Shown here: positions 4,735 through 5,044 of the stretch, piece by piece
Layout: every line of letters starts with the position of its first letter
How positions within the stretch are numbered: position 1 is the stretch's first letter
DNA from: Candidatus Woesebacteria bacterium
GTDB taxonomy: Bacteria; Patescibacteriota; Microgenomatia; UBA1400; UBA1396
Direction of reading: 5' to 3'
DNA length: 48,622 nt
Assembly (NCBI GenBank): GCA_963749595.1
Contig: CAVVNJ010000001.1
Coordinates: forward strand, 67,376 to 115,997
Translations under genes and position numbers: made by a program
Notes under the pieces: generated by a model
What the model saw: the letters and a program-made list of their open reading frames with translations, nothing else
The model's database searches: none
Told to the model about the DNA's origin: nothing

Positions 4735-5044
4735 TCCCCTGTAGCTCAATGGCAGAGCATTCGGCTGTTAACAGTAATGTCCGGCAGCGCTTACCAGAAA
4801 TGGCAAGCTGAACAAGTGGGTGAATTGCGGGAACCCTTCGCGAAAGCATGGTAATCCGCAGCCAAGCTTCGATTGAAAGATCGAGGAAGGTTCAGAGACT
4901 AGGTGATTACACCCGATCTCCGCGCAAGCGGAGTGGAGCGCCCACCACCTACGTTCGAGCAATCGAATATGGTGAAGAGATAGTCCATACCGGCGGGAAA
5001 CCGTTGGAGAATATGTAACCGAAGGGTTGTAGGTTCGAGTCCTA
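4735..5044 (+). tRNA. tRNA-Asn(GTT), positions 1-64, intron-containing; acceptor 3' strand missing at this locus
   Basis: Exon 1 4735-4768 TCCCCTGTAGCTCAATGGCAGAGCATTCGGCTGT; exon 2 5016-5044 TAACCGAAGGGTTGTAGGTTCGAGTCCTA. Spliced anticodon arm TTCGG-CTGTTAA-CCGAA; T-arm GTAGG-TTCGAGT-CCTA. Confidence 0.92.
4769..5015 (+). ncRNA. Group I intron (IC-like core, no ORF) in the tRNA-Asn anticodon, position 35/36
   Basis: P AATTGCGGGAA 4823-4833, Q AATCCGCAGCCAAG 4853-4866, R GTTCAGAGACTA 4890-4901, S AAGAGATAGTCC 4975-4986. P7 GACTA/TAGTC. P1 exon GCUGU pairs with GCAGC with a U.G at the 5' splice site. P9 CCGGCGG-GAAA-CCGTTGG. Terminal G at 5015. Confidence 0.93.

Follow-up and report, generated by a model that had tools for sequence, protein, structure and literature searches.

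An intact Asn.4Ug group I intron in a tRNA-Asn gene apparently split by the remnant of an integrative element

How can the only tRNA-Asn gene detected in a genome hold a group I intron without signs of decay when the gene itself stops short of its 3' acceptor strand? The locus that raises this question lies on contig CAVVNJ010000001.1 of a Candidatus Woesebacteria assembly (Microgenomatia; GCA_963749595.1), in a stretch of 48,622 nucleotides (nt) that we call the window and to which all coordinates refer unless another locus is named. Here, a tRNA-Asn(GUU) gene is interrupted within its anticodon. We consider it highly likely that the insertion is an intact intron of the Asn.4Ug class, with an IC3-type fold that also carries the hairpins P7.1 and P7.2, and that its host tRNA-Asn was split by the remnant of an integrative element after integration and deletion. 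An earlier note on this DNA had described the intron; it did not mention that a 2.6-kb insert from 5045 leaves the host tRNA without its 3' acceptor strand.

The insertion is recognised by the Rfam model of group I introns (RF00028, Intron_gpI), which matches 4759-5007 on the + strand with 76.4 bits and an E value of 9.4e-18. The match covers model positions 1-253 of 253 and exceeds the curated gathering score of 50 bits. A scan of the whole genome with the same model (1.16 Mb in 12 contigs, 83% complete) returned this single match. The flanking sequences 4734-4772 and 5016-5044 are 100% identical to an uninterrupted tRNA-Asn(GTT) gene in a congeneric genome (G001; tcccctgtagctcaatggcagagcattcggctgttaaccgaagggttgtaggttcgagtcctaccgggggagcca), which fixes the length of the insert at 247 nt. 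Because intron and 3' exon both start with TAAC, the DNA comparison permits five placements of the intron. Only one of these, 4769-5015, has a 5' exon that ends in U and an intron that ends in G. The intron thus sits between U35 and U36 of tRNA-Asn(GUU), so that its removal restores the anticodon loop CTGTTAA. The CUGU/GCAG pairing of P1 and the final G before TAA recur in 28/28 relatives examined. No endonuclease gene is present inside the intron, as its longest internal frame is a chance open reading frame (ORF) of 56 amino acids (aa).

Introns at this site in the same tRNA were gathered from 28 further genomes belonging to the order. Eighteen sequences were aligned with MAFFT, and pairs were counted against a reference structure derived from the window sequence. 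Standard pairs fill 94.8% of 977 cells, compared with 33-44% when the partners are slid by 1-3 columns. Both sides have changed in 25 of the 55 pairs, and none of 500 shuffles equalled any observed pairing measure. The covarying helices are P2, P3, P4, P6a, P8 and P9, and covariation supports a P3-P9 core with the P3/P7 pseudoknot, P5 pairs excepted. The core elements P, Q, R and S, formed by the 5' and 3' strands of P4 and P7, are all present and likewise supported by covariation. In P1, the CUG/CAG pairs are invariant in 18/18 sequences and the U.G pair is found in 12/12 aligned cells, the other 6 cells being MAFFT gap artefacts; in P7, all six pairs are invariant in 18/18 sequences. The window copy agrees with the consensus at all 107 columns that are at least 85% conserved, and its one non-standard pair is an A.C in P2. 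Moreover, the minimum free energy (MFE) fold of the window sequence alone yields P1, P2, P3, P4, P5, P6/6a, P7.1, P7.2, P8 and P9, with a z score of -4.1 against shuffles. On these comparisons, 4769-5015 is a genuine and undamaged ribozyme gene, and chance resemblance is excluded. The pre-tRNA is probably transcribed from the extended -10 box at 4715-4723; a strict scan for two-hexamer consensus promoters found none, and only this box, TGATATAAT, was seen by eye.

Much of the earlier description of the intron is borne out by these results. A group I intron had been proposed at position 35/36 of tRNA-Asn(GUU), which agrees with the RF00028 score, the intronless allele of G001 and the covariation among the 18 sequences. 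Its coordinates of 4769-5015 and the splice junction were correct, being the sole placement with the required ends. The U.G pair at the splice site (U4768.G4784), the terminal G (G5015, with 28/28 relatives ending in G), the full P/Q/R/S core, the exact restoration of the GTT anticodon upon excision and the absence of a homing endonuclease had also been stated rightly. The covariance-model check that had been suggested is answered by the full-length RF00028 match above the gathering score.

Table 1. Coordinates of the intron, its helices, the host tRNA-Asn and the neighbouring genes in the window.
Feature	Coordinates	Strand	Details and basis
Candidate pre-tRNA promoter, extended -10-like box TGATATAAT	4715-4723	+	Read by eye, 12 nt upstream of tRNA 5' end
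tRNA-Asn(GUU) exon 1: acceptor 5' strand, D arm, anticodon stem 5' strand, C32 U33 G34 U35	4735-4768	+	100% identity to G001
Group I intron, Asn.4Ug class, 247 nt, without ORF	4769-5015	+	RF00028, covariation, conserved columns, MFE fold
P1: exon GCUGU / internal guide GCAGC	4764-4768 / 4784-4788	+	Wobble U4768.G4784; 15-nt loop
P2 hairpin, 4789-4796/4801-4808, with L2 GAAA tetraloop 4797-4800	4789-4808	+	8/8 pairs with compensatory changes
P3: GUGGGUG (5' strand) / CGCCCAC	4816-4822 / 4939-4945	+	7 pairs, 100% paired, 2 with compensatory changes
P4-P5-P6 domain	4826-4891	+	P4 and P6a covary
P4	4826-4831 / 4855-4860	+	Covariation
P5, GAAA loop	4834-4841 / 4846-4851	+	
P6	4861-4863 / 4889-4891	+	
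P6a	4867-4874 / 4879-4886	+	Covariation
P7, guanosine-binding helix: GAGACUA (bulged A4896) / UAGUCC	4895-4901 / 4981-4986	+	Rfam alignment
Extra hairpins between P7 and P3' (P7.1 and P7.2)	4902-4933	+	
P7.1, 4902-4905/4910-4913, GGUGAUUACACC	4902-4913	+	Sequence conserved; 94% paired
P7.2, 4918-4923/4928-4933	4918-4933	+	Found in only some relatives; variable
P8, 4946-4949/4971-4974, receptor-like internal loop	4946-4974	+	3/4 pairs with compensatory changes
P8a, GCAA loop	4953-4958 / 4963-4968	+	
P9 hairpin, 4990-4996/5001-5007, with L9 GAAA 4997-5000	4990-5007	+	6/7 pairs with compensatory changes
Terminal guanosine (omega-G) preceding 3' splice site	5015	+	28/28 related introns: G before TAA
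tRNA-Asn exon 2, truncated: U36 to nt 64 (anticodon stem 3' strand, variable loop, T arm to CCUA)	5016-5044	+	
Recombinase A, large serine recombinase, 335 aa, about 165 C-terminal residues short	5042-6049	-	Pfam Resolvase + Recombinase + Zn_ribbon_recom
MerR/HTH_17-type small DNA-binding protein (excisionase-like)	6046-6273	-	Pfam; overlaps start of recombinase A
Displaced tRNA-Asn 3' end CCTCCCGGGGGAGCCA (nt 61-76; one mismatch, C for A64)	7620-7635	+	Followed by hairpin + T-run
Recombinase B, second large serine recombinase, in two frames	7540-9211	-	ORFs, Pfam; Resolvase + Recombinase in 8363-9211, Zn ribbon + C-terminal part in overlapping frame 7540-8454

The architecture of the intron places it near the IC3 subgroup. 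Neither the helix inventory nor the MFE fold contains any of the IC1 hallmarks P2.1, P5abc and P9.1/9.2 within the 247 nt. The intron instead combines a compact core and P2 with the tetraloop-receptor contacts L2-P8 and L9-P5 that are typical of IC3. Across relatives, the identity of L2 covaries with the type of receptor in P8: a GAAA loop accompanies the P8 form CACCUAA...UAUGGUG, which is of the 11-nt-receptor type, and GYAA, GCGA or GAGA loops accompany plain CUCC.../...GGAG helices. L9 is nearly always GAAA, and P5 often carries a CCUAAG...UAUGG receptor motif. We take these two contacts to be the two clamps of the Azoarcus ribozyme crystal structures. In one respect the intron departs from IC3, which has no helices between P7 and P3', where P7.1 and P7.2 are inserted here. 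The sequence is best described as an IC3-type (Azoarcus type) fold plus a P7.1 hairpin and a variable P7.2, and not as a textbook IC3 intron. The insert is the mark of the tRNA-Asn intron family, in which P7.1 has the consensus GGUGAKUACACC.

The earlier note had judged the core to be closer to IC1, the Tetrahymena-like subgroup, than to IC3. The short core strings AAUUGCGGGAA, GCAGCCAAG, CAGAGACUA and AGAUAGUC are indeed similar to the Rfam consensus, which is built on 12 seed sequences with zero bacterial members (Williams 2020, bioRxiv 10.1101/2020.01.27.920355). However, the same strings are found in the Azoarcus IC3 intron, which aligns end to end with the window intron. With all the IC1 helices lacking, a length of 247 nt, a core collinear with that of Azoarcus and clamps of the IC3 kind, we give hardly any credence to an IC1 assignment, and this part of the earlier description has to be abandoned.

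The intron is not new. It corresponds to the Asn.4Ug setting, already catalogued and common in bacteria of the Candidate Phyla Radiation (CPR): it is inserted after anticodon-loop nucleotide 4 of tRNA-Asn(GUU), at 35/36, with U at position -1 and an omega-G. The four classical settings of such introns (Leu, Arg, fMet and Ile2) have been expanded to 21, and the seed alignment of that study includes Pam37.Asn.4Ug in addition to Asp.4Ug, Tyr.4Ug and Lys.4Ug (Williams 2020, bioRxiv 10.1101/2020.01.27.920355). The P7.1/P7.2 region of the window intron matches the P7.1/P7.2 columns of this alignment. Since Asn.4Ug and Asp.4Ug are both among its sequences and the class is abundant, the novelty that had been attached to the intron was overstated.

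Within the order, a group I intron was found in 112/286 genomes. Among the best 30 matches, 27 lie in tRNA-Asn at 35/36 and 3 in rRNA genes. A strict pattern for the ORF-less form, whose counts are a lower bound, recovered it in at least 26/286 genomes and at least 19/138 genera. The exact 21-mer signature of P7-P7.1, CAGAGACTAGGTGAKTACACC, is present in 109 species-representative genomes, which carry the labels Woesebacteria, Shapirobacteria, Daviesbacteria, Beckwithbacteria, Roizmanbacteria, WWE3, Saccharibacteria, Peregrinibacteria and others, and the resolvable signature loci are all introns of 173-571 nt at position 35/36 of tRNA-Asn (74/74). In the family of the window genome the distribution is patchy, with the intron in G004 and intronless genes in G001, G003, G005, G006 and G007. 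The nearest relatives of the intron, about 70% identical, come from other families, and the intron tree is poorly resolved, with support on 3/26 branches. Other group I introns of the order reside in rRNA genes (L043, L046 and L049, in G112, G263 and G052, with two in tandem in L049); these have a different core (CAGAGACUAUACGC) and no P7.1.

The host gene is broken. Its identity to the tRNA-Asn of G001 ends at 5044, nucleotide 64 of 76, and no similarity continues beyond. The span of 4735-5044 given for the finding in the earlier note therefore holds for the intron, but not for 5044 as the end of the tRNA, where the gene merely halts at nucleotide 64/76. After splicing there is no contiguous T stem, no acceptor 3' strand and no discriminator. 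With default settings ARAGORN finds no tRNA in the window, in agreement with the expectation that standard tRNA finders miss this gene. It also finds none with introns allowed or in the sequence spliced in silico, because the tRNA is truncated. As assembled, splicing would give a tRNA without its 3' acceptor strand, and the gene as read here cannot yield a mature tRNA. When run on all contigs of the genome (G000), ARAGORN reported 39 tRNAs but no tRNA-Asn and no tRNA-Phe. The gene for tRNA-Phe is probably in the missing 17% of the genome rather than hidden by an intron, as the genome holds only one RF00028 match.

Two candidates for the lost strand were rejected. The sequence AGCGACTTGGGAC, which lies right after 5044, would form 5/7 acceptor pairs with 4 extra nt. 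A Watson-Crick acceptor 3' strand, CAGGGGA, has chance matches only, such as a ribosome-binding-site-like one at 23656. The true acceptor 3' strand, known from G001, is CGGGGGA and includes a U.G pair. The missing CCGGGGGAGCCA is located at 7624-7635, within CCTCCCGGGGGAGCCA, the displaced tRNA-Asn 3' end at 7620-7635. This end is the sole GGGGAGCCA near the locus, and a distance of 2.6 kb separates it from the truncated tRNA. Sequence 7629-7746 is 80% identical to 2258-2375 of L023 (G027), the flank of an intact tRNA-Asn in a genome of a different family. As this identity is far above expectation for an intergenic flank, it suggests that the flank past the tRNA 3' end belongs to a shared mobile element that starts at the tRNA end.

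The DNA between 5044 and 7620 encodes recombinase A, the small MerR-type protein and two unannotated ORFs. The TAG stop codon of recombinase A is the CTA of the tRNA (nt 62-64). Most of its 120 best homologues measure 497-552 aa. The three domains of a large serine recombinase are present in it, and the C-terminal region, which in this family holds the coiled coil, is absent. A search of the genome for this C-terminal part did not find it. We also considered a split integrase gene that is restored by excision and rejected it, given that the circularised element ends would keep the stop codon and that the C-terminal part is absent from the genome. The pairing of recombinase A with a MerR-type gene recurs in L055, L056 and L057. 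On the far side of the insert, recombinase B is frameshifted, and its C-terminal WLPR codons are the antisense of the displaced tRNA 3' end. Recombinase B continues past the tRNA fragment into the adjoining element, with 27 extra codons.

In intact relatives, the 3' end of the recombinase gene overlaps the 3' end of an intact tRNA in antisense, as seen on tRNA-Asn in G004 and L055 and on tRNA-Gln(CUG) in L056. This arrangement explains C-termini such as ...GLPRVDSNHEP. The CPR recombinase family concerned measures about 500 aa (L024 9638-11236 on the - strand, L055 6001-7509, L056 1502-3055) and ends in ...GLPRVDSNHEP or ...GLPDEDSNLEP. Recombinase codons that are antisense to the 3' half of the tRNA indicate that the integrase gene overlaps the tRNA 3' end and restores it after integration. 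The two junctions, attL and attR, have CCT in common. On the tRNA side, the T-loop motif TTCGAGT abuts this CCT (5034-5043); on the element side, TTCGAGT lies 5 nt further out (7608-7614, then ACTAA, then CCT). Serine integrases are expected to show such a difference in spacing between their attB and attP half-sites.

Upstream, two ORFs are found between rpoD and the tRNA, one for a PNPOx-like protein (3919-4389) and one for a 69-aa Pro/Thr-rich peptide of membrane type (4469-4678). The spacer between rpoD and the tRNA measures 565 nt in the same-genus genome G001 and 880 nt in the window, and of the two ORFs the PNPOx one, at least, is too long for the former. No similarity to either ORF was found in the G001 spacer.

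These features can be assembled into a history. An element would have integrated at the 3' end of tRNA-Asn, where related elements insert and rebuild the gene, and the junction would have been lost in a later deletion. The simplest and most likely course of events is a series of stacked integrations at tRNA-Asn with a subsequent deletion, which would have taken away tRNA nucleotides 65-76 and the 3' third of the recombinase A gene. As for the intron, the mechanism of the group I family leads us to expect guanosine-dependent self-splicing. The pre-tRNA would fold such that exon GCUGU pairs with the guide GCAGC to give P1, and an exogenous guanosine held in P7 would attack after U4768. G5015 would then enter the same site, and ligation of the exons would create the anticodon loop CUGUUAA.

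Several points weigh against this account. Splicing is a prediction, and the deletion is a reconstruction. The left junction contains an inverted repeat, GAGTCC (5037-5042) and GGACTC (5054-5059), which could signal a joint made by a recombinase rather than a deletion. The two counted P5 pairs hold in 47% of cells across relatives, a low value that reflects the poor MAFFT alignment of this internal-loop receptor region. P10, as read from the sequence, is weak in the window copy and comprises a single U.G pair. An undecayed intron sits oddly in a dead tRNA gene, unless the gene was broken very recently or there is also an intact allele or copy, and the assembly is 83% complete and also without tRNA-Phe. 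The absence of decay in the intron leads us to think either that the break is recent or that an intact allele or copy persists, be it in the population or in the 17% of the genome that was not assembled.

The latter option deserves to be taken seriously, and we regard it, tentatively, as a real possibility that falls somewhat short of an even chance. It states that the break is not the condition of the living population, and that the intron is normally used in an intact intron-bearing allele or in a second tRNA-Asn, carried by other cells or by the 17% of the genome outside the assembly. The undecayed intron would be accounted for, as would the fact that Asn is undecodable without tRNA-Asn(GUU), and the incomplete assembly, from which tRNA-Phe is also missing, leaves room for such a copy. 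The CCT common to attL and attR means that an element excised precisely would leave behind a full-length tRNA in which T50/C64 is the one mismatch. Excision by the local enzymes is, however, unlikely, because recombinase A is without its C-terminal third and recombinase B is frameshifted. In addition, the 12 contigs hold no second RF00028 match and no tRNA-Asn, and the sampled relatives have no second complete tRNA-Asn; all that G013 has in addition is a 3' fragment of 26 nt.

The truncated tRNA and the two disabled recombinases beside it could alternatively suggest that the whole locus is a decaying pseudogene, in which the intron is an inert relic next to dead mobile elements and splices no longer. 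At a long-dead locus substitutions would be expected, whereas 0/107 conserved intron columns have changed, the helices are intact except for one A.C, the exons are 100% identical to the gene of the same genus and the extended -10 box is still present. We therefore hold this explanation to be unlikely. Highly improbable, in our view, is that the sole tRNA-Asn, interrupted doubly by an intron at the RNA level and a remnant at the DNA level, still yields tRNA-Asn. For this, a DNA rearrangement, either programmed or frequent, would have to bring nt 63/64 back together with the 3' end at 7620-7635, or two transcripts would have to be joined as in split tRNA genes. An intact intron in a host gene split after integration and deletion remains our preferred reading.

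For this genome the intron is ordinary; what stands out is the mobile-element remnant that splits the one tRNA-Asn gene detected. Such a split either points to an effect of assembly or population or calls for a biological explanation. Group I introns in CPR tRNAs conceal these tRNAs from finders (Lui et al. 2021, PMC8172020). When introns were allowed, ARAGORN labelled many tRNA-Asn genes as Thr(tgt/ggt), Cys(aca) or Tyr(gta) (L029, L032, L033, L035, L037, L039, L041, L045, L051, L053 and L054), because the intron was placed 1-5 nt off. The tRNA-Asn of many CPR genomes thus goes undetected or mislabelled by default tools, a systematic annotation trap, and this inflates the counts of 'missing tRNAs' in reduced genomes. 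The Asn intron family also offers a large natural data set on IC3-type ribozymes in which a P7.1 hairpin is conserved.

The locus can be compared with four known systems. Integrative elements that target tRNAs share the arrangement seen in the relatives of recombinase A, which adjoin an intact tRNA and overlap its 3' end in antisense. In the window, by contrast, the restoring junction is absent and the tRNA stays split. The usual integrases of tRNA-targeting elements are tyrosine integrases, whereas the enzymes here are large serine recombinases.

The Asn.4Ug class shares with the window intron the host tRNA, the site at 35/36, U-1 and the omega-G. Its seed Pam37.Asn.4Ug is 68.6% identical to the window intron over 223 nt, and the P7.1 insert is present in both. 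Common core strings are GGGUGAAUUC/G..GGAA, CAGAGACUA followed by a hairpin, AGCGCCC and GAGAUAGUCC. There is no categorical difference between the two; the window copy has a short P1 loop of 15 nt, an added P7.2 and a host gene that is truncated downstream.

In some relatives the P1 loop holds an ORF. These ORF-bearing tRNA-Asn introns of the CPR (L031, L038, L044 and L048) agree with the window intron in site, ribozyme core and bacterial order. They differ in a Cys/His-rich ORF of about 106 aa in the P1 loop (CxNCHxEIH, HNH-like), which the window copy is without. In L031 this ORF spans 1244-1564 and, as in L038, L044 and L048, contains CCFCGY...DFHHRD...CSNCHREIH, which is HNH-like; at its 3' end the ORF overlaps P2 as well as the 3' strand of P1. 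A Pfam search with the P1-loop ORF of the relatives gave no match at E<=0.01.

Comparing the window intron with the IC3 intron in the pre-tRNA-Ile(CAU) of Azoarcus sp. BH72 (seed Aol6.Ile2.5Ug) reveals a collinear P1-P9 core, with an identity of 66.5% over 194 nt in an end-to-end alignment. Both introns carry GAAA loops on P2 and P9 and receptors of the CCUAAG/UAUGG type in P8 and P5, and both are without the peripheral elements P2.1, P5abc and P9.1. However, the Azoarcus intron resides at position 36/37 of a tRNA-Ile, whereas the window intron occupies position 35/36 of tRNA-Asn. Only the latter contains the 35-nt P7.1/P7.2 insert between P7 and P3', which accounts for the sole large gap in the alignment of the two ribozymes.

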